The notes below the pieces were generated by a model that had not been told where the DNA came from, did no database searches, and saw only the letters and a list, made by a program, of their open reading frames with translations. Shown piece by piece: positions 2,737-63,945 of a stretch of DNA of 64,000 nucleotides. Source of the stretch: Ostreococcus lucimarinus (lineage: Eukaryota); the NCBI GenBank assembly GCA_000092065.1, contig CP000584.1. The stretch is one strand, 5' to 3'. Each line of letters opens with the position of its first letter. Positions within the stretch are counted from its first letter, which is position 1. The position numbers and the translations under genes were made by a program.

Positions 2737-5745
<3,009 letters not shown>

Positions 5746-13800: not shown

Positions 13801-16800
13801 TTCATAGGTCGCGATTATCTCGCCGTGCTCAGACTTGCGGAACTCTGTGTGTCAGAAGCGGTGCCCACGCCAGAGGAAGCGCAGCTGTGGGACGCGCTCG
13901 CGCATGCGTGCTCTTTGGATCCAAGCCCCGACGCCACAGCAGTTCGCGTGAAGCTTATGTTGATGGTAAAAGACACTCCAATCGAACCCCGACTCGCGCT
14001 GAAGTGGCCACCCGTGGCGGATGTACTGAATTACGTCAATTGCTGGTCGTACATCAGCGCAAATTGTCGCCTCACTGGACATGAAGAGCTCACCGCGATC
14101 GAAAGCTTGGTTACGGAGACCATGGCAAAGAAGAAAACTTCCAAGTTCAAGGCTGTCATTAGTTTCATGTTCCCCGGCTCCAAGAAGGCGAGCGCGGCGG
14201 ATATGAGTATGGATCCAACGAAGACCCCAGAGTTGTTGAATCGTGCGGCGTACTTGAGGCAGCTCGTGGGCGGAATCGCGCGCATGAGCGCCGGATCTAC
14301 GCCGACGAGTTCTGGATTCCCTCTAGTATATCCAGTGGCGCCAGAATATGACAGATTCGATACCGTGGACGACCTGACTTGCTTGTCCGATAAGGTAACG
14401 GGTGAAGGACCTCTGGGCAAACTCGCGGGTCTGATTCAAACGTACAATCGTCCAGATGACGTGAGCGTCAACGGTAGTCAGGCGCTCGCTTTGATCGGCC
14501 AATGGATCGACAAGGAAAAGTTCAATCTCGACGGTAACTTGGGATTCCCGTTATTCTTTGAGCTCATGACTGGAACCCTGCCGCTGCGCGTTCTTCCTGG
14601 TGATTCTCCCCATCGTTGGGGTTGCGTTCTCCTTCGTTTTGTGCCAAACGAGCAATCGATGAAGTGCGGTACACTCATGAGTACGTTACGCGTACTTGCT
14701 TCCAGCCCCAACATCGCGCAGGATTGTCCTAAAATGGAAGAACAGAGCGTTGGTCAACGGTTTAGTTCAATGTTTACTTCGGACGGTGCGATAGGTATGT
14801 TACTTCGCAAAGTACGACCGTACCTGCAACAGCGAAAAGAGGAATTCCCCGGTCGCATATCTTGGACGGGCAAGGAGTACTTGACGCAGAGCATATACGA
14901 GTCTGACGTGCAGACTTGGGCGCGTACGATTGCTACTGGCGGCAGATGGGCGCTGACTCGATTCATGAATACATCGTGCTCTGAGCGCGAGTTCTCTCTC
15001 AAGTCGAGCGATAGCGCTGAGATGGCTGGTGGTACCACGTGGAGTGGGAAAACACTCCAGCACGTGGATCTGGAGATGCTCGTGAAGCGCCCACTCGGTG
15101 TCCTTGATTTGAACAAGTATGTCGTTCCTCTTACGGAAGATAGAGCCGATGAACTCGCGGAATCCGTCGCGCTCGGCGGTGTCGGTGGTTTGCCGTTTGA
15201 CGTCAGCCAGCATCCAGCGGCTACGACGTCCGTCGCTAGACAGATGCTCAATCGTTTGCGCGCCGACGTAACCGGAGCATCAGACAAAGCTAAGGCGCGA
15301 CGCATGAATGGTGATTTTAGTGCGGTGACGTTGAAGGGTTTCTCCCCCAGTGATACTGCCGCGATCGCATCTGAAGCGGGTGCAGGCCGCGCCGGTCATG
15401 CCGCGGGGACCGCCCGTGCGGTTCTACGTGAATTGCTAGAAGGAATTCGTCGTGTCACCGCCGACGATAAGGCGGCCGCATCTGAGGCTATGTCAGCTGC
15501 ACTTGCTACGGCGAATGGTTTACGAAAAGACGTCGAGTCTGGGACAAAGATGTTACGTCTCGGATTGCAGCGCCGCGCAGGGGCTTGGGCCGAGGTGACA
15601 TTTGAAGATTTGGTTGAGTGTTTGACGTGCGAAGGCGGCGAACACATTTTATCCCGTTTGTCTCCAGATGTGACCGCAAAGCAAATAGTTGATGCGTTAT
15701 ATTTGACGTCGCAAGCGTTGCTGCTCACGCTTCGCGCGACGCTAGCCGCGAAAGCGGCGGGTATGGTGGCTGACACGCTCATAGCGTTGACGAATTGTGC
15801 AAAGACAGCGGCTATTGACGGTATTGATTCTGTCGATCGAGACTTGAGGCTCAAAGCTCTGGCAATCGCGGAGTTGATTTCAGTGGAACGACATTACTTC
15901 CAGGCGGACACTGCGAATCCATTCAGCAAGGCAACGCGCTTGATCTTTGATCCTCGTTTGCTAGTCTACGAGTACAGTCAGAGCATCGTGCTGCGCAAGC
16001 GCCAAGTCGAGCTGACTCGAGATTTCGTTGACACGGCTGAGAACGGTGGCGGCCAGTGCGCACAGATGCTCATGGGTGAAGGTAAAACAACTGTGGTGTG
16101 TCCATTACTGGGCTTCGTTCTCGCCAAGAGCAGCTCTGTCGTCGTCCAAGTAGTCCCTCACGCACTTCTCGAGTTTTCGCGAAGCACTTTGCGCAAGGCG
16201 TACTCAGGAGTCATCAGACGTTCGGTCGTTACCCTCGAGTTCAACCGATACACATCCCTCGCCGATGGCTCAATACTCGCAACTTTAAGGAAAGCGAAAG
16301 AGAATCGAGCCATCGTCATCTCGTCACCGACAAGCATCAAGTCTCTCGCGCTTAAATTTTTGGAAGTCTGCCACCTGCTCGATCAATCGTACATCGCTGA
16401 CCGTGATGGCAAGACCGGTGGTATGCTCGCACAAGGAGCTGATTTAGTCAGTCGCGTTTTTGGTGGCGCTAAAAGTCGGAGTGAACGTGTTGCTGAGGCT
16501 GGTGGGTTAACCATCGAAGAAATAAACACATTGCGCTCAGAGGCAACGGCGGCCGCGGAAATTTTTGAAATTTTCCAAACTGGCACGCTTATTTTGGACG
16601 AAGTCGACTTGATTCTTCATCCTTTGAAATCCGAACTCAACTGGCCAATGGGTCGACGTATTCCGCTCGACTTCAGCAAGGCTGCGTCAGGCGACGGTTT
16701 GAGATGGAAGCTTCCATATTACATCCTTGACGCCATCTTCGCAGTCACGTACGGGCGCTCGACGGCTTCGGAGGCTGAAGGTTCGCAAGAGGCAATCGAT

Positions 16801-19800
16801 CTGCTCGACGGTATACGCGCCGCGGTTCGAACGGCGATCGAATCGAAACAATTGCAGACATCACCGCATCTAGCGTTGCTCGATAAGTCTTGGTATCAAG
16901 ATATCTTGCGTCCGCTCTTGGCGCAGTGGACGAGCATTTGGCTGCGTGCTCATGGCGCGTTGCGTGGCATGTCAGAGGCACTCATTATGGCGTATCTTCT
17001 GCGGGGACCGGGCGCGGCTGAAGCAAAAGCGCAGCTGAATCGTGAATGTGAAGACGAGGCTGTGAAGATGACCAACCTCGCGCGAGATTGGCTTTGCTCT
17101 CTGTTGCCTCACATGCTCGCGAAGATTAATCGCGTAACGTTTGGTTTGTTACAGCCCGCGGACGTATCGCTACTCGAAGAAGTGACGGGATCGCGTCTGC
17201 CGAAAACCCGTAGACTTTTGGCAGTTCCTTTCGTGGGTAAGGATATTCCGAGTCGAACGAATGAGTTCTCACATCCAGATGTCGTTCTCGGGTTGACAAT
17301 TTGCGCATACCGCCTCGAGGGTTTGCGCCGTGCCGACTTCAAGCAAATGCTTCGAATCTTAATGGAAGAGTACGATAACGAGGCCGGTCCTCCTCAGAAG
17401 CGACCGGCTGCTCGTAGGTGGGCGGACTGGGTGCGTACGACTGGGAAGCGAGTGCGAGGTGAAGCGCGCGCTGAGGCAGCGCTCGCCGCAAGACGACGCG
17501 GCGTTTCGCAGCAAACCGGAACTACAAATGTCGGGGATACCCGCGGATTGGCGTGGCTCGAAGACGACACCGCAGGTCTGCAAGACGACGAGGTTTGGCC
17601 TTTGCAGCTTATCGATCTCAGAGATCACGATCAGGTTGAAGAAATCTACCAACTTCTGCGAAGGACGCCGCCGTGTATCGAGTATTATCTCGACGAATTT
17701 GTCTTCCCTGAAACGGCGCAGCATCAAGATTTGAAACTGAGCGCCACTGGCCAAGAACTCGGTGGTGATGTGTTGTTCCCCAACCGACTCGGTTTTAGCG
17801 GTACCCCGAGCGACTTACTGCCGCTCGAGCTCGGTGCTCCGCGATACGAATCCGGCTCTGACGCCAAGATGCTGGCATACTTGACGGATCCGGAAACCGC
17901 AGCGACGATGCCTTTGGACGTTGATTGGAACGTGCAGACTCTCCTCACCCGTATTGCGACGGTAGACCCACCGATACGTGCGCTCATCGATACGGGTGCG
18001 CTTGTCACGGGCATGTCCAACCTCGATGTCTCGAGATTCTTACTCGAGAAGGGTCTGAAATGGGCTGAAGGATGTGTGTTCCTCGACGAAAATGATCGAC
18101 AGATGATTCTCATGCGCAAAGGATGGGAAGTCATTCCTCTTCAACGCGTCGCCGCAATGCCTTTGACGAAACGATTTACGTTCTATGATCAAGTTCATAC
18201 GACCGGTATGGACATCAAACAGGCCGCGGCGTCGCAGGCAGCCATCACCCTCGGTAAAGACATGTGTCTTCGCGATTATGCGCAGGGTGCTTGGCGCATG
18301 CGCGGTTTGGGCAAGGGTCAGACGCTAAAGGTGATTGTGATTCCGGAGGTTGCGAGACTCATCTCGCACGAAGTTGCCAAAGGAGGTGGACAGATCCCAT
18401 CGACGCGCGATGCTGAACTCGCGACAATGTCGGCCGAAGCGGTCGAGAAGCGTAAGTTACGAGACATCACGGCTTGGCTCGTCGTGAACAGTATGCGAAG
18501 TGAGAATATTCAAGCCGGTTTGCTCGCAGAGCAACGCGCGGCGAATATCTGGAGAAAGCATTCATACAGGAAGCTTGTGTCATCGCCCACTGCACCGGGA
18601 ACACCAAAGGCGGAGGGTATGATTCACGCGTGCCTTGACGTCTTCCGAGATCGCGTGTCGTACGTCGTGGCGAATGTCATTCCTCAAAGTGTATCGCCTT
18701 CAGAGAAGTTAGCGAGGAGCGTACAGCAGTTCGGACATTTGCTCGACGATAGTCCTCGCGCAAAAGAGCAATTACGATTGATCGTGAACGACGTGAAGCA
18801 AATGGAGGAGACGACGAATGCGGCGTTGAAGCGGATTCGCGCTGGCACACACATGGCTCCAGATGCGGCGGAGTCCGGTGATCAAGGTTTGGCTGGTGGT
18901 TTGGAGCACGCCTTGGACCTCGAGCAAGTTCAAGAGAATGAGGAAGAACAAGAAAATGAGCAAGAACAAGAGCAAGAGAAGGAAGAAGAACGTGAGGAAG
19001 AAATCATCGAGGAAGCCCCAGATGGCTTGAAGTACGTGCGCGACGACGAGAAACAGCCGTCGTGGAGTTACGAGTCTTTGTGCAAAAGTCCAAGCTCAAT
19101 GGCTCAAGGTTTCTACCCACTCAAAACGTTCAAGATACATAAAGGTGTCGGCAAGACTACAGCACCTTTGGATTTCCCGGAGTATCTATATCTATCGAAA
19201 AATTACTTCCGTGAAGGATGGGCGCTCAACGGCCATCGACGCTTGAAGAATCTCACCGTCGTGCTGGACTGGGTACCGGATAGCAGCGCTTTATCGACCG
19301 ACGCCGGTGGTAGCGTCGCGGCGGGTACGTTCACAGCAGACCAGGAGTCAGCGCTACGAACTGCGTTCGATATGTTTGACTCTTCCGGAAACGGTCGTTT
19401 GACAGAGTCCGACCTCCGAGAGGTTTTGCGTGAGATCGACGCTTGCGTAGAAGACGATGAGCTTCGTCTTCAACAGTTGGCGCGTGAGGTTGCTGCAGAA
19501 TCACGCACGTTCAATACCGGGGGTAAGTCATCTGGGACGTCTTTCGAGGAGTTAAAGCGCGTCCTTCGTTCGAAGAACATTTACTCATTGCAACGTGGGC
19601 GATACTACGTCGCGTTGTCTCTGGCTGAAGCCGAGTCGCTGCGCGTTGTCATGCATCTCACGAAGGGTAGTAAAGCGAGTGACGGCAAACTGATTCCATC
19701 CAAACTCACCGAAGCTGCGTTGCGAATCGGTGGCGGTACGCTCATCGATAACACGTCGAGATTTACGCCCGCACAGGTGTTTCAAGGTGCGACGGCCGAG

Positions 19801-21672
19801 CAATGTTTCAGATTTCTCGACAGTCAGCTGGATTTCGAAGACCGCGAAGTTTCATTGCTGCTTCGTGCGCTCCAAGGGTCGTCGTGCGATAAGCGAGCGC
19901 AATTTTTCGTGTCTGTTCGGGCGTGCAGGCGGCGCGCTAAAATTCCATGGGCGTCGTCGCCACTCGCCAAGGTTCTCACTACGGTGGATGAATTCCATTT
20001 ACTCGCGTCGAGAGCACTCGTCGCTCGTGTACGTACGGCGCTCAAGTCCAAACGTATGCGTCTTTTAGATGCGTTCCGGGCTTTTGACGGAGATAACATT
20101 GGAAAGCTTACGTATGAAGCGTTATATGGTGGCTTGTCGTGGCTCGGCCTTTCGCTCACGTCGGCTCAAATGCTCGAGCTGGCTGCGCGTGTGGACAAGA
20201 CGCACGACGGCTACATCAGTCGAGAAGAGTTCGAGGAAGCTTTCGGGCCAGATGACGATTGGGTTTTAGATGGCGATTTCCACGAACAGGTTCCCATACC
20301 GACTCTAGCTCCCTCGGTGCCAGTGCCGACGTCTCAGCTTGCGCAAGTGAGCTTGATGGATATTCTCGGCGACGTTGGAAGCGACGAGGGGTCGAAATCG
20401 TCGAGTAAGGATCTTGTCGCTCCTGAGATACAGTCGCCATCGAAGGTAATGAGCACGGAAAATTTGAGCATCGATGACGGTACAGGACTTGGTGACTGGG
20501 GCGCGCTCGGAATGGCGGCGACTTTACCAGTTGTTGCGAAGAAGAACCCGCCTCTCGCCAAGGAACAGCCCAAGCCAAGCGCGAACGATCCGTTTGGTTT
20601 GGGTCCTCCAGCCGGCGCGTCGTCAACCGCGTTCGATGATTGGTTGTCTGGCGGTTCGGGCAACATGCTTGGCGGTGGCTCGTTGAACGATCCCCTCGGC
20701 ACTCAAGCAAACCCAAATGCCGCAGACGGCTGGGAAGGCAACGACATGATTCAGCTCGACACCTCGACTGGTACCATCGCCGCGCCGGCGCGAGATAAAA
20801 TCCAGGCAAGAGCTCTTGTGGATCCGGCAAAGGAAGCTGAAGAGCGCAGGCACCGCCAAGTCGATTCCAAGTTGACGAGCTCGGCTCTTAATGGGTTCCA
20901 AGTAGCCGTCGTGCACCAAAAATCGTTCCAAAAAGTTTGGACGAGCGACGGCACTGGAAGCCGTTCGACTGGAAGCGTGTGGCAAGCAAACTTGGGTAAA
21001 TCGACGCTGAAGAAAAAGACTGAGCGCATTTCGCTCGGTCACTACGCTTCGCCACACTTTTCGCAACCGAAACCTGCGCCATTTGCTGTCGAAGTGACCG
21101 ACATAAATGCGTTCGCGCTCACTGGTTCGAACTATATGCCACGAGTGTTGGATCGCTTGTTCCCACATCCGAGCCGGTTCAGACAGGTTTGGGGACAAGA
21201 ATGGAAAGGAACGGCGGTGTATGCGTGGACTCCCGTGCCGCCACCTGGATGCGTAGCCATTGGTATGGTGTTGACGTCTATCCCGCAGGCACCGGACGTG
21301 TCCACCATGCGATGCATTCCAGAGAAATGGGCAATAAAGCCAACGATGGAACCCCAACTCGTGTGGACGAATGAAGGCAGTGGTGGTCGTCCGGCGAGTA
21401 TTTGGTTGGTGAACTCGCTCGGTTTGTTGTACGTGAATGTCGGGCACAATCCTCCTCCGGCGAGAGATGTTTGGGACATCAAACGAGGTCAGCTCACCGC
21501 GGACCAGGTGCTTCAGTATCAGGCGTCGGCGCCGCAAACGTCCTACGGCGGAACAGGAATTTCGAGCGACAGCTTTGACGGACCGACGTACAACCCTCCG
21601 CGGCCTCCACCCCCGAGCGGCAACAGCGGTGGATCAAACGCTTTGCCCGCGGGATTAGGATCGCTGATTTAG
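7870..21672 (+). CDS. Giant single-exon multidomain protein (about 4,590 aa from ATG 7897). Domains in order: PH domain, long alpha-rich region, P-loop NTPase module resembling DUF3638/DUF3645, acidic E/Q tract, two EF-hands, Vps62/DUF946-like C-terminal domain.
   Basis: Uninterrupted 13.8 kb ORF. Codon 1 in the track is TTG; the first ATG is at 7897 (MSRAAG...). PH-like N-terminus: HVAFSGWLTKRGGKDLYGKATWRLRYFVLRR. P-loop: CAQMLMGEGKTTVVCPLLGFVLA (around 16068-16097), with a downstream ILDEVDLILHPLKSELNWP block. Acidic tract EEQENEQEQEQEKEEEREEE (around 18925-19012). EF-hand loops DSSGNGRLTESD and DGDNIGKLTYEA/DKTHDGYISREE. C-terminal VWTSDG...SIWLVNSLGLLYV...WTPVPPPGCVAIGMVLT resembles the plant Vps62/DUF946 motif (SIWRP.PP.GY..LG). 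Confidence 0.8.
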   Translation: MRLFRSRRAMSRAAGASAPSTASSHVAFSGWLTKRGGKDLYGKATWRLRYFVLRRPRHAKERACVRYFANEPADGAESAAKGEFAINGQSAVRILDSDETFAEFGLKAHKYAGKRMFAFQTMPGQGGKSAALVVEAEDLTTMQRWVTAISEAITRARSLENEAASKTGLAVLNAQVDGDENDVLRGKNFRGTLELAGLCGPLGDGALPVHLDACWENLTFVDLMADSCLNEKLGKMRRSKYVRETLTSLVDSAITIGRCLGASPIPMSGPESNAMSTIRRALDDMLALARLMPVGTKDNNIFVSFLAALLDRVRQLRPGELIMCPGGWANEEGGAAVIYTIHRLPAHFVVSLTNCGDGVEFHPIQADPAKDAFKYIHTIQLMDVPIAVAMDSSAWALLFRPLIFPQDAASAKDMIYNKLLPMMNGRPLLASVTPKPLRTVKFAKQPRGRDSSGVFTALEAARCGLASLGCPPNRADALVNLGVRFVMLEEAKRDLERVNMIGASALVTLQAACRTVAEYAANHADLCVEAEEASNGEPPKKTTMPRETLAQMLRSVESVILRTKALHGATTLPPALQPPKVPITACALPLFNRLASEGNVDSLAGAARTPPILRPVELTLVPDAVAKLEDVPKALRNALHCCTILANQADLMPNSYALRVSLLVHLFVHVLPAPLPITHPERHTKCFWASVNTTYELQAEILRSLNLLLRHFSAAALSISVTQTFDAARLLTIANFAAIADATLRLKVADAPSAFMQHYAGYAEGPISAFGFEIGPFAVEAEYLRFHCPERTIRLTQTLDYFHSLKKTIESDHMIYRWENEAAGGMSFGVGEARLIDQVCLQMGIGREDPEYLAKYHSGELREFADSYPEMSALRDIIFMFKLLMAPTSDDLPELARWKPIDAALDWSVARRESSRSYFDLEVRAFGRALTIQPWKEPEVEQGTSKTGWRNIFGGGFFARMQDRRPRCPPSGANPSNLAGQRVDTEEDVLHLREVPTFDNLLKPSESELLLTYLTAPMIRLPLVMKLFAEPTRVRGLTHNDIQSVLDAVIFEPGPWAPPEPTTIPKEIPATTRAHMATPTGLLVHELINCPAPLADSAEELLALSLELDTGRHDAPSAQGVLFACRMLTRLLAFVDSILKANSLDSEFTTSTGLTRGLDCSSASLSALADVKVRITKALKERCRPVIQRWLRHAVKKNAIRAACALHAHLAYMYYWTPRVEIDKQAALIILTAQQYIFVNYHFTDTPDGSETSNRKLADTGSMSGVDTGLGFAPTEIFDLFQRKRRSILEWAAANPQDANSILENVVETLTTKKTDGSNSPTNVLDAEDTFSAKRAWRRAPGAGGAGRFVSYVSDIPFADLVERDKRAAALLLQNHRHYGEWLLETTLQSFDMEINAQLGEFTVRKNRLRHLEASIREMPDFVAALGPVLAKRGIEPSHFQELSKGDELVIGDSGDVVHCAEVKNTEHRTWMRLVGLNHDIQLWDRDPRPPLNEFTRPLVSRVQTKSQALELLGRAVGAGGLASCEQWILSILDPIIKGPGAGYLHGVELFLPKNTIHGSIARLAGTGAPENAVSEPWSFWKRKTVSTSNDDQRRVEEAKQLLTEVMIVREPPLVQVFRVESYGRRWRRSLVFASNASFCLADIDPDGQPILKDENERFLLSAARLGSRAPSLVVTRLLNGFIGRESFVPARHLRGLLPQVLLEEYQFWRSETTGDLFGTANESASHPNTMIHVRLGYENNLLLDGGFPVDTRAIVRRLPTMGADGISRLPPLDGSYVDGQLTLVDLLYAPSLAGEQGRALLALTKSLAAVEGLAHSLVWSSKPGLESGPNEHIAGVCDISRVELPRLGVSFNAIESGGAIRLECEEHAGLFLAQRRNAALEILLTGLPHALLLEARDGALSVLLSASAIPRPAATASDFAHGASTGLGSDLIIDRWSTQWVENIGSTKHYVYPVHPSHATISATSMPAALYLAILRFIGRDYLAVLRLAELCVSEAVPTPEEAQLWDALAHACSLDPSPDATAVRVKLMLMVKDTPIEPRLALKWPPVADVLNYVNCWSYISANCRLTGHEELTAIESLVTETMAKKKTSKFKAVISFMFPGSKKASAADMSMDPTKTPELLNRAAYLRQLVGGIARMSAGSTPTSSGFPLVYPVAPEYDRFDTVDDLTCLSDKVTGEGPLGKLAGLIQTYNRPDDVSVNGSQALALIGQWIDKEKFNLDGNLGFPLFFELMTGTLPLRVLPGDSPHRWGCVLLRFVPNEQSMKCGTLMSTLRVLASSPNIAQDCPKMEEQSVGQRFSSMFTSDGAIGMLLRKVRPYLQQRKEEFPGRISWTGKEYLTQSIYESDVQTWARTIATGGRWALTRFMNTSCSEREFSLKSSDSAEMAGGTTWSGKTLQHVDLEMLVKRPLGVLDLNKYVVPLTEDRADELAESVALGGVGGLPFDVSQHPAATTSVARQMLNRLRADVTGASDKAKARRMNGDFSAVTLKGFSPSDTAAIASEAGAGRAGHAAGTARAVLRELLEGIRRVTADDKAAASEAMSAALATANGLRKDVESGTKMLRLGLQRRAGAWAEVTFEDLVECLTCEGGEHILSRLSPDVTAKQIVDALYLTSQALLLTLRATLAAKAAGMVADTLIALTNCAKTAAIDGIDSVDRDLRLKALAIAELISVERHYFQADTANPFSKATRLIFDPRLLVYEYSQSIVLRKRQVELTRDFVDTAENGGGQCAQMLMGEGKTTVVCPLLGFVLAKSSSVVVQVVPHALLEFSRSTLRKAYSGVIRRSVVTLEFNRYTSLADGSILATLRKAKENRAIVISSPTSIKSLALKFLEVCHLLDQSYIADRDGKTGGMLAQGADLVSRVFGGAKSRSERVAEAGGLTIEEINTLRSEATAAAEIFEIFQTGTLILDEVDLILHPLKSELNWPMGRRIPLDFSKAASGDGLRWKLPYYILDAIFAVTYGRSTASEAEGSQEAIDLLDGIRAAVRTAIESKQLQTSPHLALLDKSWYQDILRPLLAQWTSIWLRAHGALRGMSEALIMAYLLRGPGAAEAKAQLNRECEDEAVKMTNLARDWLCSLLPHMLAKINRVTFGLLQPADVSLLEEVTGSRLPKTRRLLAVPFVGKDIPSRTNEFSHPDVVLGLTICAYRLEGLRRADFKQMLRILMEEYDNEAGPPQKRPAARRWADWVRTTGKRVRGEARAEAALAARRRGVSQQTGTTNVGDTRGLAWLEDDTAGLQDDEVWPLQLIDLRDHDQVEEIYQLLRRTPPCIEYYLDEFVFPETAQHQDLKLSATGQELGGDVLFPNRLGFSGTPSDLLPLELGAPRYESGSDAKMLAYLTDPETAATMPLDVDWNVQTLLTRIATVDPPIRALIDTGALVTGMSNLDVSRFLLEKGLKWAEGCVFLDENDRQMILMRKGWEVIPLQRVAAMPLTKRFTFYDQVHTTGMDIKQAAASQAAITLGKDMCLRDYAQGAWRMRGLGKGQTLKVIVIPEVARLISHEVAKGGGQIPSTRDAELATMSAEAVEKRKLRDITAWLVVNSMRSENIQAGLLAEQRAANIWRKHSYRKLVSSPTAPGTPKAEGMIHACLDVFRDRVSYVVANVIPQSVSPSEKLARSVQQFGHLLDDSPRAKEQLRLIVNDVKQMEETTNAALKRIRAGTHMAPDAAESGDQGLAGGLEHALDLEQVQENEEEQENEQEQEQEKEEEREEEIIEEAPDGLKYVRDDEKQPSWSYESLCKSPSSMAQGFYPLKTFKIHKGVGKTTAPLDFPEYLYLSKNYFREGWALNGHRRLKNLTVVLDWVPDSSALSTDAGGSVAAGTFTADQESALRTAFDMFDSSGNGRLTESDLREVLREIDACVEDDELRLQQLAREVAAESRTFNTGGKSSGTSFEELKRVLRSKNIYSLQRGRYYVALSLAEAESLRVVMHLTKGSKASDGKLIPSKLTEAALRIGGGTLIDNTSRFTPAQVFQGATAEQCFRFLDSQLDFEDREVSLLLRALQGSSCDKRAQFFVSVRACRRRAKIPWASSPLAKVLTTVDEFHLLASRALVARVRTALKSKRMRLLDAFRAFDGDNIGKLTYEALYGGLSWLGLSLTSAQMLELAARVDKTHDGYISREEFEEAFGPDDDWVLDGDFHEQVPIPTLAPSVPVPTSQLAQVSLMDILGDVGSDEGSKSSSKDLVAPEIQSPSKVMSTENLSIDDGTGLGDWGALGMAATLPVVAKKNPPLAKEQPKPSANDPFGLGPPAGASSTAFDDWLSGGSGNMLGGGSLNDPLGTQANPNAADGWEGNDMIQLDTSTGTIAAPARDKIQARALVDPAKEAEERRHRQVDSKLTSSALNGFQVAVVHQKSFQKVWTSDGTGSRSTGSVWQANLGKSTLKKKTERISLGHYASPHFSQPKPAPFAVEVTDINAFALTGSNYMPRVLDRLFPHPSRFRQVWGQEWKGTAVYAWTPVPPPGCVAIGMVLTSIPQAPDVSTMRCIPEKWAIKPTMEPQLVWTNEGSGGRPASIWLVNSLGLLYVNVGHNPPPARDVWDIKRGQLTADQVLQYQASAPQTSYGGTGISSDSFDGPTYNPPRPPPPSGNSGGSNALPAGLGSLI
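18925..19012 (+). repeat. Coding low-complexity (GAA/CAA/GAG)n tract encoding an E/Q-rich acidic stretch inside the giant ORF
   Basis: caagagaatgaggaagaacaagaaaatgagcaagaacaagagcaagagaaggaagaagaacgtgaggaagaa. Confidence 0.7.
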
Positions 21673-24352: not shown

Positions 24353-24981
24353 CGCGCATCATTCGTCAGTCTCGTTCTCCGTCCTCGAATCACCCGCGCG
24401 CGTCTCCGACCTCGCGTCTCCGCGCCCGTCCGCCCGAATCCTCTGAATTCGACCGTTTAAAAACCGTTTCGAAATCCCGCGTCGCCCTCGACCCGTTCGC
24501 GCGCGCGCGCGCGACGTCCCGCGCACCTCCTCCCGTCGCGCCGACGCTCGATCGACGACGTTCACGCTCGCCTCCCCGAACGCCTTCTGCAACCACCGCT
24601 CGGCGGACGCCCCCGACGCCGCGGGCGAGTGTCGCGCCGACGACCCCGGCGGGCTCATCGCGTTTGAATCTCCGATCGCCTCTCGCGCGCGTTCGCGGTC
24701 GCGTCCGACGCGCGTCGCGTCGCGCTCGCGGGTCGACGCGCGCGGTAAAAACTCGCGCGTCGTTTCGCTCGCTCGCGGCGCGCGGCGAGCGGTCGCGCGG
24801 GACGGTGTGCGGCGCGGGCGCGCGGCCGCGGCGCGCGTCTCACGGGGGTCAACGCGGGACGGGGTTTTATACCAAGGCGCGCGCGTCGTGACTGTGACTG
24901 TTTGCCCACACGACGCACGACGTCGCGACCGCGTTATCCGAATCGCGCGCGCGCGCGGTCGCACTCCGCGGCGACGAGACG

Positions 24982-26724
24982 ATGTTCGCGGTGCAGCGCG
25001 CGCCCGCGCGCGCGCTCGCGAAGAGCGCGCGCGGCGACAGGTGCGCGGCGCGGCGCGGCGCAGCGCGCGACGCGCGACGCGCGAACGCGAGACGCGAGAC
25101 GCGACGATCGAACGGCGAGGTCAAAAGCGTCGCGCGACGGGACGGCGACGGCGCGGCGACGACGCGCGAGGCGAGGGGCGAAGAAAAAACGACGAGCGAG
25201 GACTGACGAAAGGCGACTCGACGACGCAGACGCGCGAGAAGCGCGCGACGAAGCGCGGTGGTGCGCGCGGCGGAGAAGTCGTACGACTACGACTTGGTGA
25301 TCATCGGCGCGGGCGTCGGCGGACACGGCGCGGCGATGCACGCGGTGTCGCGAGGGATGAAGACGGCGATCATCGAGGGCGATGTGATCGGAGGGACGTG
25401 TGTGAATCGAGGGTGCGTGCCGTCGAAGGCGCTGCTCGCGGCGTCTGGACGCGTGCGGGAGATGCGCAACGCGGAGCACTTGCGCTCGCTCGGTATCCAG
25501 TTGGATCCGAGCGCGGTGAGCTTTGATCGTCAAGGCATCGCCGATCACGCCACGAATTTGGCGTCGACGATCCGGGGTAACTTGGAACGTTCGTTGATCG
25601 GGCTTGGGGTTGAAATTTTGACCGGGGCGGCGAAGATTGAGGACAACCACACAGTTTCCTACGGCGCGCCGGGCACGGTCACCGGGGGGAGAGTGACGGC
25701 GAAGAACATCATCATCGCCACCGGTTCCACGCCGTTCGTGCCGCCGGGCATCGAAGTCGACCACAAGACGGTGTTCACCTCCGATGCGGGTTTGAAGCTC
25801 GACTGGGTCCCGGAATGGGTCGCCATAATCGGTTCCGGTTACATCGGTTTGGAATTCTCCGACGTGTACACCGCGCTCGGCTCCGACGTCACCTTCATCG
25901 AAGCCATGCCTAACATCATGCCGGGTTTCGACAAGGAGATCGCTAAGATGGCGGAACGTATTTTGATTACCCCGCGTAACATCGACTACGTCACCAACGT
26001 GTTGGCGACCAAGGTCACGCCGGGTATCCCGGGCGAAAAGCCGGTGACGATTGAGCTCACCGACTTCAAGACGAAGGAAGTCGTCGACACTATGGAAGTC
26101 GACGCCGTCTTGGTTGCCACCGGTCGTTCTCCGTACACCGCTGGCTTGAACGTCGAAAGCATCGGCGTCGAGCTCCAACGCGGCTTTATCCCGGTCAACG
26201 AAAAGATGCAAGTGTTGGACAAGGATGGCAAGGTTGTCGAGGGCATGTGGTGCATCGGCGACGCCAATGGTAAGATGATGTTGGCGCACGCGGCGAGCGC
26301 CCAGGGTATTAGCGCGATCGAGAACATGCACGGTAACGAGCACGTCCTCAACCACCTCTCCGTTCCGGCCGCATGCTTCACTCACCCCGAAGTGTCCTTC
26401 GTCGGTTTGACTGAGGAGCAGGCTCGCGCCAAGGGTGAGGAGGAAGGCTTCGAAGTCGCCGTCCGCAAGACGTCGTTCAAGGCCAACTCCAAGGCGCTCG
26501 CTGAGAAGGAAGGTGAGGGTATGGCTAAGTTGATTTACAACCCGAAGACGAACGAGATCTTGGGTATGTGGATCATGGGCTTGCACGCCGCGGATTTGAT
26601 TCACGAAGCGTCCAACGCCATCTCCACAGGCGCCACTTTGGACGACTTGAAGTTCACCGTGCACGCCCACCCGACGCTTTCCGAAGTCATCGAATCTCTC
26701 TTGCGAGGCTCGGACGGGCACTAA
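24982..26724 (+). CDS. Dihydrolipoamide dehydrogenase (E3; plastid or cyanobacterial-type LPD). Proposed exons: 24982..25040 (presequence) and 25230..26724. The core ORF 25258..26724 is certain.
   Basis: Core: FAD/NAD Rossmann motif [17 protein letters not shown], redox disulfide [17 protein letters not shown]-terminal HAHPTLSE. The track's first codon at 25258 is GTG. ATG 24982 ([19 protein letters not shown], transit-peptide-like) is in the same frame but separated by a TGA. A 189-nt GT..AG intron (donor GACAG|GTGCGCGG at 25041, acceptor CGACGCAG| at 25229) would join it in frame. This is inference only. Confidence 0.8.
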
Positions 26725-41604: not shown

Positions 41605-42696
41605 CTAACTAGCGCGCGACTCGCCGCCCTGCGCGTAGGCGCGGTCGTGCGGACAACTCGGGATGGGCAGGGGCAGGAAAGGGAACGGCGCAACCGAGGT
41701 TTCACTCAGCGCCGGTCCCAAGGCGCGCGATCTGAACTGCTTCAATCTCTCTCGTTCGGGCGACCAATCGTACGCCGCCGCGAACGGCACGCAGTGCCAC
41801 GGGAAATTGGCGCTGGCTTGCCTCAAAGACTCGTACGCGTCCACGGTGTGATCGCGAGGCACTCGGTGCAAACACGCTAGAGCTTGAAACGCGGGCAAGT
41901 ACAGCAGAGAGCCGAAGAACATGCGCCGAGCGGCTGGAAACGACGGCGCCGCGTAAAACGCCGCCGCCGCGGCGACGAGCGGCGCGCCGAGCGCGAGCGT
42001 CTCGTACGCGAACGGCGACGTCGTCACCCCCATCGCGCACGCTAACACGCCGAGTGGGAGCAGTGCCAACGAGTTTCTCACCGCCACGCCCGCGACGCGA
42101 CGTCCCGTTTTGTCAAACATTGGATGCGACAACATGCGATACCCCCCGTTGACGTAGTCGTCCTTCCCCATGTACGCCAACGCCATAAAATGCGGCATCT
42201 GCCACAAATACAGCGCCGACGCCAACACGAACGCCCCTGGATCCAACGTCCCGAGCTCGTTCGCGGCCGCCCAACCCATGAGCGGGGGAATCGCCCCCAC
42301 GACCGCCCCCACCCACGTGTTCAGAAAGTGCACCCGCTTGAGCGCCGTGTACGCCCCCGCGTACAGCGCGATGTTCCCCGCCCCCAGCGCCGTCGTCGTC
42401 TCGTTCGTCGCGATCGCTAAAACACCCACCCCACTCACCGCGCACGCGCCCGCGAACGCCATCGCGACCCCGGCGCCGCACCTTCCGCTCGGCAACGGCC
42501 GACCCGCCGTGCGTCGCATCGTCCCGTCCGGCGCCCGCTCCACCACCTGATTCAGCGCGTTCGCGCTCGCGCTGCACAGCATCGTCCCCGCGCACGTCGC
42601 CGCTAATTTTCCCGCGTCCATGCTCGTCGGCGAGCCGAGCACGAACCCCGCCGCCGCCGTGCTCACGACGAACGCGCTCAGGCGAAACTTGCTCAA
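41605..42696 (-). CDS. COX10: Protoheme IX farnesyltransferase (heme O synthase, COX10). The N-terminal presequence is not resolved.
   Basis: KFRLSAFVVSTAAAGFVLGS (TM1), NALNQVVERAPDGTMRRTAGRPLPSG, GAIPPLMGWAAA, LYLWQMPHFMALAYMGKDDY. The track's first codon is TTG. The first in-frame ATG lies within TM1, so an upstream exon or a non-AUG start is likely. Confidence 0.85.
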   Translation of the reverse strand: MSKFRLSAFVVSTAAAGFVLGSPTSMDAGKLAATCAGTMLCSASANALNQVVERAPDGTMRRTAGRPLPSGRCGAGVAMAFAGACAVSGVGVLAIATNETTTALGAGNIALYAGAYTALKRVHFLNTWVGAVVGAIPPLMGWAAANELGTLDPGAFVLASALYLWQMPHFMALAYMGKDDYVNGGYRMLSHPMFDKTGRRVAGVAVRNSLALLPLGVLACAMGVTTSPFAYETLALGAPLVAAAAAFYAAPSFPAARRMFFGSLLYLPAFQALACLHRVPRDHTVDAYESLRQASANFPWHCVPFAAAYDWSPERERLKQFRSRALGPALSETSVAPFPFLPLPIPSCPHDRAYAQGGESRAS

Positions 42697-42774
42697 ATCG
42701 CGCGCCGTCTCCAGCAGCGCGCGCGCCGTGCGCGGCGTCGTCCACGTCGGCGCGAGCGTCGACGCGCGCGTCGA

Positions 42775-42809
<35 letters not shown>

Positions 42810-42884
42810 CGCTCGACGCGAACGCGCGCGGCGCGTCGAGCGCGCGCCGCGCCGAGCGCGAGCGCGCGCGCGCGCGCGGCGCGC

Positions 42885-44438
42885 ATGACGACGCGACGAC
42901 GAGTGCGACACTCGGCGACGCGCGCGCGACTCGACATGGCGCTCGCGGCGCGCGCGACGACGACGCGCGGCGACGCGGGACGCGCGGTGACGCGACGACG
43001 ACGCGCGTCCATCGCGCGCGCGCGCGAGACGACGCGCGCGAGCGACGCGCGCGACGGCGGCGCGACGGCGGGGACGATGCCGACGGGGACGAAGGTGGCG
43101 CTCGACGACGCGCGCGCGGCGTGCGTCGCGCTCGCGCTCGAGGAGGCGGACGCGGTCGGGAAGATCACGCTCACGGGACCGGGGCGAGGGACGGCGGCGG
43201 AGGCGCATCGAAGGGTGGAGTTTCGATGGGTGACGATTCGGGGGCGGACGGCGCTGCAGCGGACGCGGTACGACGAACGACAGGCGTTCACGAGTAATCA
43301 CGCGATCGAGGGCGAAGGAGGGCTCGTTTCGAAGAGCGCGAGCGGGGATGAGGACGCGATCGGGGCGAGGGAGGCGCTGGAGGAGGCGCTGAGGGCGGGA
43401 TATAAACATTGGCGCGTCGAACACGCGCGCGGCGGTTACAACGTGACGGCGAACGCGAAGAAGGCTCGGGCGACGATTTCTAGGGACAACGCGAGTAAGG
43501 GGACGCTGATAGACGGTAGTGCGAGAACGCAGACGATCGTCGTCGGCCCACAAGGGCACGACCGCGAGAAGTCGAGGTTACTGACGGGGGAGGACCCGTT
43601 TTTGCGATACGTCGGCGTCGTCGCCAAGGATGGAACCATCAAGGCGAGCAAGCGGGACAAGTACAAGCAAGTGGAGGAGTTTCTGAAGATTTTGAACGTT
43701 GCTTACGACACCGCGACGTCGGCGGGACACATGAAGGGCGGCGATGAGACTCGCCCGCTTCGTGTGTGCGATTTAGGATGCGGGAACGCGTATCTCACGT
43801 TTGGGGCGTACTCGCTCTTGAGCTCGAAGAGACGCGTGCCTACAAACGTAGTGGGCGTCGACGTGAAGCGCCAAGCGCGCGAACATAACTCGCGGGTGGC
43901 CAAAGAGCTAGGTTGGGATGCGTCGATGAGATTCATTGAAGGCACGATCGCCGACGCCGACGTGACTTTCGTAGACGGTTCAGAGGAGGACGCGTTCACC
44001 GACGTAGTGCTCGCTTTGCACGCGTGCGACACGGCGACGGATGAGTCCATCGTTCGAACGGTGCGTTGGTGCGCTCCACTGGCGCTCATCGCGCCGTGCT
44101 GTCATCACGATCTCCAAGTGCGTTTGAAAAGCGCACCTCATGTTGCTTTCCCGCCGATGGCGAGGCACGGCATCCTCAGCGAACGTCTCGGTGACGTTCT
44201 CACGGACGCATTCAGAGCTCACATTTTGCGACTGCTGGGATATCGCGTCGACGTCATGGAATTCGTAGGAGGGGAGCACACGCCTCGAAATACTCTCATT
44301 CGAGCGATCCGCACGAACGCGTCGGCGTCGAAGGCGGCGTGGGAAGAGTATGATCACATGTGTTCAACGTGGGGCGTCACGCCTTTTCTCGCGGACGCCC
44401 TCGCCGAGGAGTTGGCGGTGGCGCGTCGCGCGATCTGA
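42885..44438 (+). CDS. SAM-dependent methyltransferase, Methyltransf_32 (METTL25/RRNAD1-like) family
   Basis: VCDLGCGNAYLTFGAYSL (motif I), DVVLALHACDTATDESI (the family-typical ALHACGD-like block), CCHHDL. The Arg/Thr-rich N-terminus may be a presequence or a leader. Alternative start MPTGTK at 43077. Confidence 0.7.
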   Translation: MTTRRRVRHSATRARLDMALAARATTTRGDAGRAVTRRRRASIARARETTRASDARDGGATAGTMPTGTKVALDDARAACVALALEEADAVGKITLTGPGRGTAAEAHRRVEFRWVTIRGRTALQRTRYDERQAFTSNHAIEGEGGLVSKSASGDEDAIGAREALEEALRAGYKHWRVEHARGGYNVTANAKKARATISRDNASKGTLIDGSARTQTIVVGPQGHDREKSRLLTGEDPFLRYVGVVAKDGTIKASKRDKYKQVEEFLKILNVAYDTATSAGHMKGGDETRPLRVCDLGCGNAYLTFGAYSLLSSKRRVPTNVVGVDVKRQAREHNSRVAKELGWDASMRFIEGTIADADVTFVDGSEEDAFTDVVLALHACDTATDESIVRTVRWCAPLALIAPCCHHDLQVRLKSAPHVAFPPMARHGILSERLGDVLTDAFRAHILRLLGYRVDVMEFVGGEHTPRNTLIRAIRTNASASKAAWEEYDHMCSTWGVTPFLADALAEELAVARRAI

Positions 44439-54950: not shown

Positions 54951-55748
54951 ATGGGTCGCGTTCGCACGAAGACGGTGAAAAAGGTGCGCGTCGAATCGAA
55001 CGCGTCGCGAGCGGCACCGGCGACGGCGCGCGCGGCGACGGCGACGGCGCGAACGCGCGACGCGATGGACGGGGCGACGATGGAAACCCTAAGGACGATC
55101 GCAGAGAGAACGAACGCGCGCGGGAGGGCGGCGTCGAGCGCGCGATCGGACGCGCGAACGGACGGGGAGGCGCGGGTGATTTTGAACGCGCGCGATGACT
55201 GACGACGACGACGATGCGGTGTTCGCGCGTGCGGTAGGCGTCTCGCCAAATCATCGAAAAGTATTACTCGAGGCTCACGCTCGACTTTGCGACGAACAAG
55301 CGCATCGCGGATGATATCGCGATCATTCCGTCCAAGCGTTTGCGTAACAAGATTGCGGGTTTCACGACGGTACGTTTTAAGGCGAGCGAAGCGCGGGAAC
55401 GCGGTCGGTGCGCGAGAGGGCGCGACGGTGCGACCGAGGCTCGATCGGTGGGGTTTGAGACGCGCGAACGCGCGACTGACGTCGGGTTGATGAATCGTTC
55501 GGAAACAGCACTTGATGAAGCGTATCCAACGCGGACCGGTGCGCGGTATCTCGCTCAAGCTTCAAGAGGAGGAGCGTGAGCGCCGCATGGATTTCGTGCC
55601 GGAGAAGTCCGCGCTCGAGACGGACTCCATCGAAGTCGACCGGGACACGATGGATATGTTGAAGTCGATGAACATGGGTAACTTGCAAGGCGTTTCTGTG
55701 TCTAGCCGTGCGCACTACAACAAGGGTCCGCGACGTGATCGCGCGTAA
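54951..55748 (+). CDS. RPS17: Cytosolic ribosomal protein eS17. Three exons: 54951..54983, 55238..55369, 55509..55748.
   Basis: Exon 1 [11 protein letters not shown], followed by a GTGCGC donor. Exon 2 (acceptor GGTAG|) encodes [44 protein letters not shown], followed by a GTACGT donor. Exon 3 (acceptor AAACAG|) encodes [37 protein letters not shown]... This aligns along its full length to eS17 ([24 protein letters not shown]...[42 protein letters not shown]). The product is 134 aa. Confidence 0.85.
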
Positions 55749-61628: not shown

Positions 61629-62123
61629 CTACGCCAACGATCCCAACGTCCCGCGCTCGCCTAAATCCCCCGCCGCGGTCTGCCCTCCCGCGGCCTCTCC
61701 CGCCATCTTCGCTCGAGCCTCCGCGAACAATTTATTCTGCAGCGCCATCGCGTCCTCCGCGCTCATGTCGATCCGCTTCCTCTTCTTCTTCGCCTCGCGC
61801 TTTTCGTTTTCCTCCTCCTTCGCCTCGTCGCGCGCGATTTCGCACTCAGCCTCGTACGACTCGAACCCCAGCGCTCGCAGCGCTCGCAGCACGTGCTCCG
61901 CCGTTATCGTCGACTTTCCCTCTCGCGTCGACGCCTCGTTCGCCTCCGCGCTCACCGCGTTCACGAATTCATCCCCGCACTCGCACACCATCTCGCGACA
62001 CTCGTTTGAGATTTTCTGATTCGCGTCGATCGCGCGCAGCGCGTCGTTGATCATCTTGTGCAGCGTCGCGCGCGGGAGCTGCAGCTCATCGTCGCTCACG
62101 CCGTCGCGGTCGAAGCCGTCCAT
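61629..62123 (-). CDS. DR1: Negative cofactor 2 beta (Dr1), a histone-fold TBP-binding repressor
   Basis: Start Met at 62123 (MDGFDRDG..). LPRATLHKMINDALRAIDANQKISNECREMVCECGDEFVNAVSAEANE...KSTITAEHVLRALRALGFESY matches Dr1 (LPRA.I.KMIKE.LP....A.DAR.LV..CC.EFI...SSEANE...KTI..EHV..AL..LGF..Y). Lys/Glu-rich C-terminal tail. Confidence 0.85.
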   Translation of the reverse strand: MDGFDRDGVSDDELQLPRATLHKMINDALRAIDANQKISNECREMVCECGDEFVNAVSAEANEASTREGKSTITAEHVLRALRALGFESYEAECEIARDEAKEEENEKREAKKKRKRIDMSAEDAMALQNKLFAEARAKMAGEAAGGQTAAGDLGERGTLGSLA

Positions 62124-62217
62124 CGCGCGTCCCGTCGCGCGCGCGAATGATGGCTGCGAATGCGCGCATCGACGGGACGCGAACGCGCGCGGCACGTCGC
62201 GACGCGGCGCGGCGCGC

Positions 62218-63162
62218 ATGCCGCGGTGCGCGAGCGACGACCGACGATGGTCGTCCGCGGACGTCCCGGGCGAGGCGTCGACGCGCGCGCGACGCGAGCG
62301 ACGCGAGCGACGCGTCTCGAACGCGACGACGACGGCGACGACGGCGTCGGACGCGGACGAACGCGACGGACGCGGACGACCGCCGCGCGCGACGACGACG
62401 ACGGGGACGCGCGCGAACGAGACGAACGACGCGACGACGACGGCGCGCGACGACGCGGCGCCGAGCGTGCTGCAAAAATTGCAAAAGTGGGGGGATTACG
62501 AGTCGTGCGGGGACGTCGTGCGCGGGACGCGGTTGATTCCGATGAAGACGCCGCTGTCGCCGCGGTACGTGGAGGAGAATTGCGTGAACGCGCTGACGAT
62601 GGAGTCGCTGATGCGAGGACAGCGCGCGCGAGGACGGGAGATCGGGCTGATCATCGATCTCACGAATCACGATTGTTTGTACGAGGACGACATACCGAGC
62701 GACGTGGCGCGAGTGCACGTGCGAAACGTGGCCAAGGCGGTGCCGAGCGCGAGCGACGTGCGAAAGGCGACGGAGGCGGCGAATAAGTTCTTGGCGACGG
62801 CGGGGAATGAGAATAAGTACATCGCCGTGCACTGCGCGTACGGATTCAATCGCACGGGGTTCGTGATTTGTTGTTATCTAGTGCAAATGTTCGGGGCGAC
62901 GCCCGCGGAGGCGATGGAGCTCTTCGCCGAGGCGCGGCCTCCGGGATTGAAACACTTGCACTTCAGGCACGAGCTCGTCGAACGATACGCGCCGAGCGAG
63001 ACGAGAGGCGATTCAGATTCCCCGATCGACGCCTTGTCGCGGTTGCGAATCCGTCGCTCGTTCGACAGCGAGCCGGATTTCCGCAACGCAATCGACGACG
63101 AGGACGAAAACGACACGCTCGACATCGAGATGAATCGCAAGCACTGGCGCGCGGCGCCGTGA
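62218..63162 (+). CDS. RNA 5'-triphosphatase-type cysteine phosphatase (mRNA-capping-enzyme TPase / DUSP11-like), stand-alone, with no guanylyltransferase domain
   Basis: Active-site P-loop IAVHCAYGFNRTGFVICCYLVQMFGATPAEAMELFAEARPPGLKHLHFRHELVERY equals the capping-enzyme TPase signature (HCTHGxNRTG ... RPPGI). ATG 62218 (MPRCAS..) is in frame with the ORF that opens at 62047. Low-complexity Thr/Arg/Asp N-terminal region. Confidence 0.7.
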   Translation: MPRCASDDRRWSSADVPGEASTRARRERRERRVSNATTTATTASDADERDGRGRPPRATTTTGTRANETNDATTTARDDAAPSVLQKLQKWGDYESCGDVVRGTRLIPMKTPLSPRYVEENCVNALTMESLMRGQRARGREIGLIIDLTNHDCLYEDDIPSDVARVHVRNVAKAVPSASDVRKATEAANKFLATAGNENKYIAVHCAYGFNRTGFVICCYLVQMFGATPAEAMELFAEARPPGLKHLHFRHELVERYAPSETRGDSDSPIDALSRLRIRRSFDSEPDFRNAIDDEDENDTLDIEMNRKHWRAAP

Positions 63163-63324
63163 CCGGCGCGAGTCTCCGACGGCGTTCTTCGATATTTCTC
63201 CGCACTCGCATTTCTCGCACTCGCGTGCTCTGGTGTAATATGTACTTCAGTTTTCTAGCGCAGCCGAGCGCTCGCGCGGCCCGCTCGACGCGATTCGCAC
63301 ATCGCGACTCCCGCACCGACGCAA

Positions 63325-63706
63325 TGGTGCGTCCACCGCCCGCTCGCCTCGAACGCGTCGAGATCGCGCGCGCATCGCGTCCGCGCGCGTCGCGCGCGCA
63401 TCGCGCGCGCGCGCGCTCGTTCTCGCGCGCCGACGTTCCACGCGCGGGTTTACCCCAACCCGACATCGACGACTGACGCTCGCGCACGTCGCGATCGCGC
63501 GCGCTCGACAGCCCGTGGAGTCCGTTCCACCGTTCGCCATCATCGTCGGCGCCATCACCGCCATGGGCGGGCTGCAGTACCTCACCCACGGCGCGGCGTA
63601 CGGGAAGCCGCGCGCGATCGGGCAGGACGCGTTCGATCGTCTCGTCGCGGCGCGAGACGAGCGCGTCAAGACGGCCGCCGCGAGCGGACGCGGGGCGCAA
63701 AAGTAG
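63325..63706 (+). CDS. NDUFA1: NADH dehydrogenase (complex I) 1 alpha subcomplex subunit 1 (NDUFA1/MWFE). Proposed exons: 63325..63327 (ATG only) and 63512..63706.
   Basis: ORF 63515..63706 (first codon GTG) encodes VESVPPFAIIVGAITAMGGLQYLTHGAAYGKPRAIGQDAFDRLVAARDERVKTAAASG. This is collinear with plant MWFE (..LPLGIIGGMLCIMGN.QYYIHKAYHGRPKHIGHDEWDVAMERRDKKVVEKAAA). No in-frame ATG lies upstream. ATG|GTGCGTCC at 63325-63332 plus acceptor CGACAG| at 63511 would give an in-frame 65-aa product starting MPVESVPPF. The splice is inferred. Confidence 0.5.
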
Positions 63707-63945
63707 CGCGTTTGAACCGCGACCGGGCGCTCGAGCGCCGTTGTAATTGATCCCTAGAGTAGCGCGGACGCGGCGAATCGAGACGCGACCCGGCGCCGGG
63801 CGAAGCGACACAATGTCGCGCGCGTCGTCGGCGGCGCGCTCGATCGCGCGCGCGGGCGCGCGAACGCGCGCGGGCGCTCGCGCGCGCTCGATTCGCCGCG
63901 CGCGACGCGCGCGCGTCGCGGTGTTGACGAACGAAGAAGTCGAGT

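Follow-up and report, generated by a model that had tools for sequence, protein, structure and literature searches.

The 64-kb window of the Ostreococcus lucimarinus genome considered here is the whole stretch of DNA that was analysed, and all positions are given in its numbering. Downstream of a DSPc phosphatase ORF (62047-63162, Pfam DSPc, stop codon at 63160-63162) lies, on the + strand, a reading frame homologous to MWFE, the NDUFA1 subunit of complex I, in compact eukaryotic DNA with a GC content of about 0.6-0.7. This frame is open from 63239 to a TAG at 63704-63706. A sequence-only reading of the locus had remarked that it contains no usable in-frame ATG, and translation of 63239-63706 bears this out: the frame has no ATG ahead of the one for the internal Met in AITAMGG, and the ORF listing gives GTG 63515 as its first start-type codon.

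An ATG lying in a different frame from the unspliced MWFE ORF is found at 63324-63326 (+). It is directly followed by a donor GTGCGT (63327-63332), the junction reading ATG|GTGCGTCC, and further on by a branch motif CTGAC (63473-63477, branch A at 63476, 35 nt from the 3' splice site) and by an acceptor CAG (63509-63511) in the context CGACAG|CCC, after which exon 2 begins at 63512. These signals delimit a predicted phase-0 intron of 185 nt (63327-63511, + strand, 75% GC), placed right after the start codon, which makes up all of the coding sequence of exon 1. The intron length is not divisible by 3, and reading on from ATG 63324 meets a TGA inside the intron (63474-63476). With the donor directly after the ATG and the acceptor at CAG|CCC (63509-63514), the MWFE homologue comes in frame at codon 2, and codons 2-65 with the stop codon occupy 63512-63706 (+). 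The ATG before a GT donor, the acceptor and the first base of exon 2 had all been recognised in the sequence-only reading, and these stand; it had placed the ATG at 63325 and the intron at 63328-63511, while the true start is one base to the left, at 63324, and the intron really begins at 63327.

In silico removal of 63327-63511 yields MPVESVPPFAIIVGAITAMGGLQYLTHGAAYGKPRAIGQDAFDRLVAARDERVKTAAASGRGAQK, a product of 65 aa (MPVESVPPF...GAQK) that reproduces the one claimed earlier and is letter-for-letter XP_001417376.1. It matches the Pfam MWFE profile PF15879 with 55 bits (E=9.9e-15), for a cut-off of 27 bits, and its residues 2-54 correspond to profile positions 1-54 of 55, residue 2 being profile position 1. 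Plant complex I chains also align to the spliced product, over about 58 residues (6x89_A1, E=6.3e-10; 7a23_V, E=6e-08). These chains, from Vigna radiata (6x89 chain A1) and Brassica/Arabidopsis (7a23 chain V), together with related entries, are 65 aa long like the Ostreococcus protein, and have in common with it an N-terminal membrane helix followed by a G(K/R)P+.IG.D.+D region. However, residues 6-63 of the plant chain pair with residues 3-60 of the algal product, whose N-terminus is 3 residues shorter and whose C-terminus is 3 residues longer, so that the equal length of 65 aa is partly a coincidence. On these matches, the Ostreococcus protein is assigned to the MWFE/NDUFA1 family, as a predicted subunit of mitochondrial complex I.

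The homology search gave 13 clusters, all but one of them Ostreococcus-like. Six lineages were set side by side: O. lucimarinus, O. tauri, and four represented by metagenome or Logan contigs (L002, L005, L011 and L012). The donor is ATG|GTGCGT or ATG|GTACGT (ATG|GTRCGT) in 6/6 lineages, and all six likewise have a CTGAC 23-41 nt before the acceptor, an acceptor CAG|CCN, and phase 0. Intron lengths are 176, 181, 185, 197, 203 and 259 nt, none of which is divisible by 3, and in each of the six, reading through the intron runs into in-frame stops. The coding exon is 62-77% identical between lineages, the intron interiors only 19-46%. Got1, NF-YB, DSPc and MWFE follow one another in a conserved gene order.

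The closest comparison is with the O. tauri models. In strain RCC1115 the gene spans 404 nt, made of a 3-nt ATG (3001-3003), a 203-nt intron (3004-3206) and 198 nt of coding sequence, and its product (OUS49682.1) is a 66-aa protein beginning MPIESVPPF. The product of strain RCC4221 (CEF97758.1 / XP_022838873.1) has the same MPIESVPPF start and differs from it by one residue; the v2 annotation of this strain was guided by RNA-seq and curated by hand, and RNA-seq validated 89% of its introns (PMC4378021). As in O. lucimarinus, the O. tauri models consist of an ATG, a phase-0 intron and 65 codons, with the junction ATG|GTGCGTCC, the CTGAC motif, the CAG acceptor (here CAG|CCG) and the flanking genes. 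They differ by the length of the intron (203 nt, versus 185 nt in O. lucimarinus, with an interior 39% identical), and by the protein, which is 66 aa long and 80% identical to that of O. lucimarinus. Splice signals that are kept while the interior drifts are what one expects of a working spliceosomal intron whose position is conserved, and would be hard to explain otherwise. A more distant relative, represented by a metagenome contig of lower GC content (L006), encodes its MAWETVPPF contiguously, without intron, so that the NDUFA1 start-codon intron is not universal.

Were there no intron at all, the mRNA would be translated unspliced, from a non-AUG start at GTG 63515 or at some near-cognate codon of the upstream open frame. 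Such a reading agrees with a frame open from 63239 in which GTG 63515 is the first start-type codon, and prokaryote-style callers applied to metagenome contigs do give GTG-type products (P0002, P0015, P0016), but in DNA with 75% GC a long open frame is predicted by chance alone. Moreover, GTG 63515 is not conserved across lineages: the codon after Pro, third in the spliced product, is GTG, ATC (O. tauri), GTC (L002) or GTT (L011), which argues against its being an initiation codon, whereas ATG|GTRCGT, CTGAC and CAG| are invariant in 6/6. A ribosome scanning the unspliced mRNA would also meet ATG 63324 first, and make an unrelated 50-codon peptide ending at TGA 63474. Translation without splicing is extremely unlikely in our view.

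Two TGTAA motifs, the green-algal type of poly(A) signal, bracket the gene. The first (63234-63238, +) is likely the poly(A) signal of the upstream DSPc phosphatase gene, and the second (63742-63746, +), which begins 36 nt after the end of the stop codon, likely that of NDUFA1. The motif recurs tens of nt after stop codons in other contigs (at about 2926 in the O. tauri contig L001, 3290 in L002 and 500 in L012), in L001 and L012 at the same relative place as the motif at 63234-63238, and this recurrence in Ostreococcus lineages is consistent with a green-algal poly(A) signal; TGTAA is in this respect useful for bounding UTRs in the very compact intergenic regions of Ostreococcus. Since the TGTAA at 63234-63238 ends the upstream gene, it limits how far upstream the NDUFA1 transcript can begin, and from this limit we infer the transcription start and an exon 1 composed of a 5'UTR no longer than about 85 nt and the ATG. 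An exon consisting of the start codon alone, as the sequence-only reading had it, describes just the coding part of 3 nt, because the exon must also hold the 5'UTR; by normal gene anatomy, it would be a first exon with 3 coding nt, and not a micro-exon in the usual sense.

Exon 1 might also be longer in its coding part. An upstream ATG (63240-63242, +) is in frame with ATG 63324, 84 nt apart and without a stop in between (MYFSF...TDAM), so that a start at this codon, with the same splice, would add a 28-residue extension, MYFSFLAQPSARAARSTRFAHRDSRTDA, ahead of MPVES.... This extension is basic, Ala/Ser-rich and presequence-like. Nevertheless, ATG 63240 begins only 2 nt past the TGTAA of the upstream gene, and is thus probably outside the NDUFA1 mRNA. 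It has no counterpart in O. tauri and L012, where no ATG is present between TGTAA and ATG|GT, the latter containing the first ATG after the TGTAA; the Pfam profile and the plant MWFE chains, for their part, begin at the short N-terminus. A start at 63240 is very unlikely, and ATG 63324 is retained as the predicted start codon.

Another concern is that ATG|GT...AG be a chance match, in a locus that is decaying or mis-assembled. The string ATGGTRCGT is found 4 times in the window, for 0.49 expected, and the other three copies (1302+, 3253+ and 10247-) are inside or antisense to coding ORFs. For this reason, the enrichment of the motif was set aside as evidence, and the case for non-chance signals rests on conservation across lineages, not on motif counts. 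An ATG|GTGAGT at 31007 was examined as a start-codon donor as well, and rejected as being out of frame inside an 826-aa ORF. Decay or mis-assembly could find an argument in one contig that has neither the ATG nor the donor (L010, positions 1540-1560; ENA ERZ27294371 contig k141_217198), but against this every lineage has an intact, conserved coding sequence, the flanking genes remain syntenic, and the interior of the intron has drifted around constant splice signals. We give a chance match next to no credence.

The L010 contig deserves a description of its own. It is near-identical to the window, except for 59 missing nt that correspond to 63289-63347, and include both the start codon of NDUFA1 and its GTGCGT donor. 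The gap is flanked by two copies of GCCCGCTCG, and either a slippage deletion in nature or an error of assembly could account for it. In this contig, an upstream ATG (equivalent to 63240 of the window) enters the MWFE frame via the retained intron, giving an extended ORF of 135 aa that is rich in Arg and Ala (P0021). If this allele is real and functional, there would be no strict need for ATG 63324.

A further possibility is that the intron harbours some function of its own. The fold of the NDUFA1 intron is no more stable than that of shuffled sequences (z=-1.03), no Rfam family is found within it, the sole match being a sub-threshold mir-305 located outside (63207-63292), and the antisense ORFs have no Pfam match. 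With an ordinary fold, an unconserved interior, no Rfam family and antisense ORFs devoid of Pfam domains, this possibility was rejected.

We thus favour, with a probability of about 0.93, a two-exon model with a start-codon intron for O. lucimarinus NDUFA1, in which we infer splicing at the junction. Exon 1 of this nuclear gene would be a short 5'UTR ending in ATG 63324-63326, directly followed, in phase 0, by a canonical U2-type GT-AG intron (63327-63511), and the spliceosome would join ATG to CCC. The ribosome would then scan the mature mRNA and start at its first AUG, the translation product (MPVESVPPF...) being a 65-aa single-pass membrane subunit of mitochondrial complex I. This model is supported by the intron of the LPD gene in the same window, which is confirmed by RNA (see below) and has the same donor, branch and acceptor pattern. 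The spacing of CTGAC in NDUFA1 resembles that of ACTGAC in this LPD intron, and in the annotated DRP5B and RPS17 introns. Indirect support for the splice comes from the RNA-seq-guided O. tauri v2 annotation, in which the model is retained. The spliced ATG|CCN junction was found in JGI metagenome and metatranscriptome contigs neither by an exact scan, nor by a degenerate scan covering six lineages, and the protein collection holds no transcript-derived MPVES... entry besides genome annotations; so short an mRNA may simply go unassembled.

An exact-sequence look-up identified the spliced 65-aa product with ABO95669.1 / XP_001417376.1, and with UniProt A4RWR5. The former is listed as 'predicted protein' of O. 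lucimarinus CCE9901, and the latter as NADH dehydrogenase [ubiquinone] 1 alpha subcomplex subunit 1. From the upstream gene up to exon 2, GT follows an ATG at 63324-63326 only. The public model must therefore share the exon structure described here, and no difference separates it from our reconstruction: they are the same object. The exon structure is therefore correct but already public in GenBank, and not new. The public model may itself be an ab initio or homology-based prediction.

The intron class has been described as well. Introns in phase 0 that separate codon 1 from codon 2 are known as "start-codon introns" (Nielsen & Wernersson 2006, BMC Genomics 7:256, PMC1626468), and are over-represented among proteins that are short, conserved and devoid of a signal peptide. 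NDUFA1 has in common with this class the phase, the position between codons 1 and 2, a short conserved protein without signal peptide, and a position kept among orthologues. Judged by these sequence features, the Ostreococcus intron would belong to it, the prasinophyte complex I subunit merely adding a further instance. With the gene model public and the intron class described, no new biology is involved.

The case has more bearing on annotation. A first exon with 3 nt of coding sequence could be recovered from the raw sequence, while ORF-based or prokaryote-style callers miss such exons. For the annotation of Mamiellales genomes and MAGs, it would be worth seeking ATG|GTRCGT ... CTGAC ... YAG upstream of short conserved ORFs devoid of a start. 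Gene calls on metagenome contigs (P0004, P0001, P0018, P0053 and others) have GTG/'V' or an internal Met as their start, or include a translation of the 3' portion of the intron, and the spurious MWFE 'proteins' that result are 44-155 aa long, some of them carrying a KEGG-style name. Short intron-containing genes of picoeukaryotes suffer from a systematic gene-call artefact in metagenome catalogues. P0018 and P0021 were considered as genuine long N-terminal extensions and rejected, being read-through calls on genomic contigs with indels, and not transcripts.

From non-AUG starts in the ORF listing of three other genes, the sequence-only reading had proposed a recurring micro-exon-1 architecture for organelle-related genes, and the 5' ends of several genes of the window bear on this proposal. 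The DRP5B-like dynamin gene, on the - strand, has a first coding exon of 44 codons (24527-24658, ATG at 24658), followed by a phase-0 intron (24526-24338) with GAG|GTGCGC at 24527|24526, an ACTGAC branch and CAG|G at 24338|24337. Its product is exactly XP_001417611.1 (900 aa). The acceptor had been placed correctly, exon 2 beginning at 24337, but the supposed short unannotated 5' exon has 44 codons, and is already annotated in XP_001417611.1.

For LPD (dihydrolipoamide dehydrogenase, + strand), spliced RNA-type contigs define a first coding exon of 59 nt (24982-25040), followed by a phase-2 intron (25041-25229; GTGCGC ... ACTGAC ... GCAG). Three contigs of 1596-1644 nt (Logan SRR33975890 and SRR33975903; JGI 3300028335) encode the spliced product of 517 aa without interruption, and in one of them, L007, the junction ...GGCGACAG|ACGCGCGAG is directly read, behind a stretch recognisable as Illumina adapter. 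The intron coordinates given in the sequence-only reading were right, and are confirmed by these spliced RNA contigs; a first exon limited to the start codon is not what they reveal, since the real first coding exon has 59 nt. Among the matches listed, which are 15 of 65 cluster members, the 517-aa product with the 59-nt first exon is found only in RNA-type contigs from JGI and Logan (L007, L008 and L009), and public annotation may lack the 5' end of the O. lucimarinus gene.

Short first coding exons are also found in two ribosomal protein genes. Cytosolic RPS17 (ribosomal protein S17e, + strand) has a first coding exon of 11 codons (54951-54983), then a canonical intron (54984-55237), and a second intron at 55370-55508, its 134-aa product being exactly XP_001417372.1, and organellar RPL12 has two 5' introns after a first coding exon of about 25 codons. 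An intron postulated in RPB5 (donor 37525) proved spurious, the ORF being contiguous.

Scans of ATG|GT donors revealed no second ATG-only first coding exon in the 64 kb. The generalisation to organelle-related genes does not hold: with 44 codons in DRP5B, 59 nt in LPD, about 25 codons in RPL12 and 11 in RPS17, which is cytosolic, NDUFA1 is the sole ATG-only case. Short first coding exons are common in the window and not tied to organelle function, and a sample of 64 kb is too small for an enrichment test. That start-codon or 5'-proximal introns be enriched genome-wide in Ostreococcus genes for mitochondrial and plastid proteins is a long shot, and so, separately, is a natural extended-MWFE variant in L010. 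If true, the enrichment could reflect, for example, a dependence of short housekeeping transcripts on introns for their expression, in a genome stripped of most of its introns. A single uninterrupted ORF of 4600 aa (7870-21672, +) occupies more than one fifth of the window.

The 5' end of COX10 (heme O synthase, - strand) is of another nature. Its CDS is 5'-partial in GenBank (41605-42696; XP_001417619.1, 'predicted protein, partial', 363 aa) and starts with LSKFRL at a TTG, so that TTG 42696, which had been read as the sign of a short 5' exon, is just the edge of a partial CDS. The frame is open upstream to 43164, without ATG, and the in-frame upstream peptide (RAFASS...APTWTTPR...) is homologous to the N-terminal extensions of orthologues. 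All frame-restoring combinations of ATG, GT and AG upstream of COX10 were enumerated, and none had a canonical donor, a CTGAC branch or a YAG acceptor. A 5' intron was rejected on account of these missing signals, and of the contiguous, ATG-initiated N-terminal extension of orthologues. ATG 42937 (MSSRAR..., similar to the start of the orthologue P0085) and ATG 42886 are not in the COX10 frame, from which a (GC)n run near 42840-42880 separates them. This suggests an indel of 1-2 bp or a sequencing error. An indel in the GC-repeat region would be a likelier cause than an intron, a frameshift between these ATGs and the COX10 frame being possible. A divergent gene starting at ATG 42885 (+) overlaps the region upstream of COX10 (42700-42940).

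Two members of the COX10 protein cluster have unusual ends. P0084 begins with MCIRDR and finishes with ...CLLYTSPSPRD, ends which we take to be translated transposase-adapter sequence. In the Logan protein P0247, the first 80 residues or so are divergent, and fused to a sequence identical to the window, which looks like a chimeric assembly.
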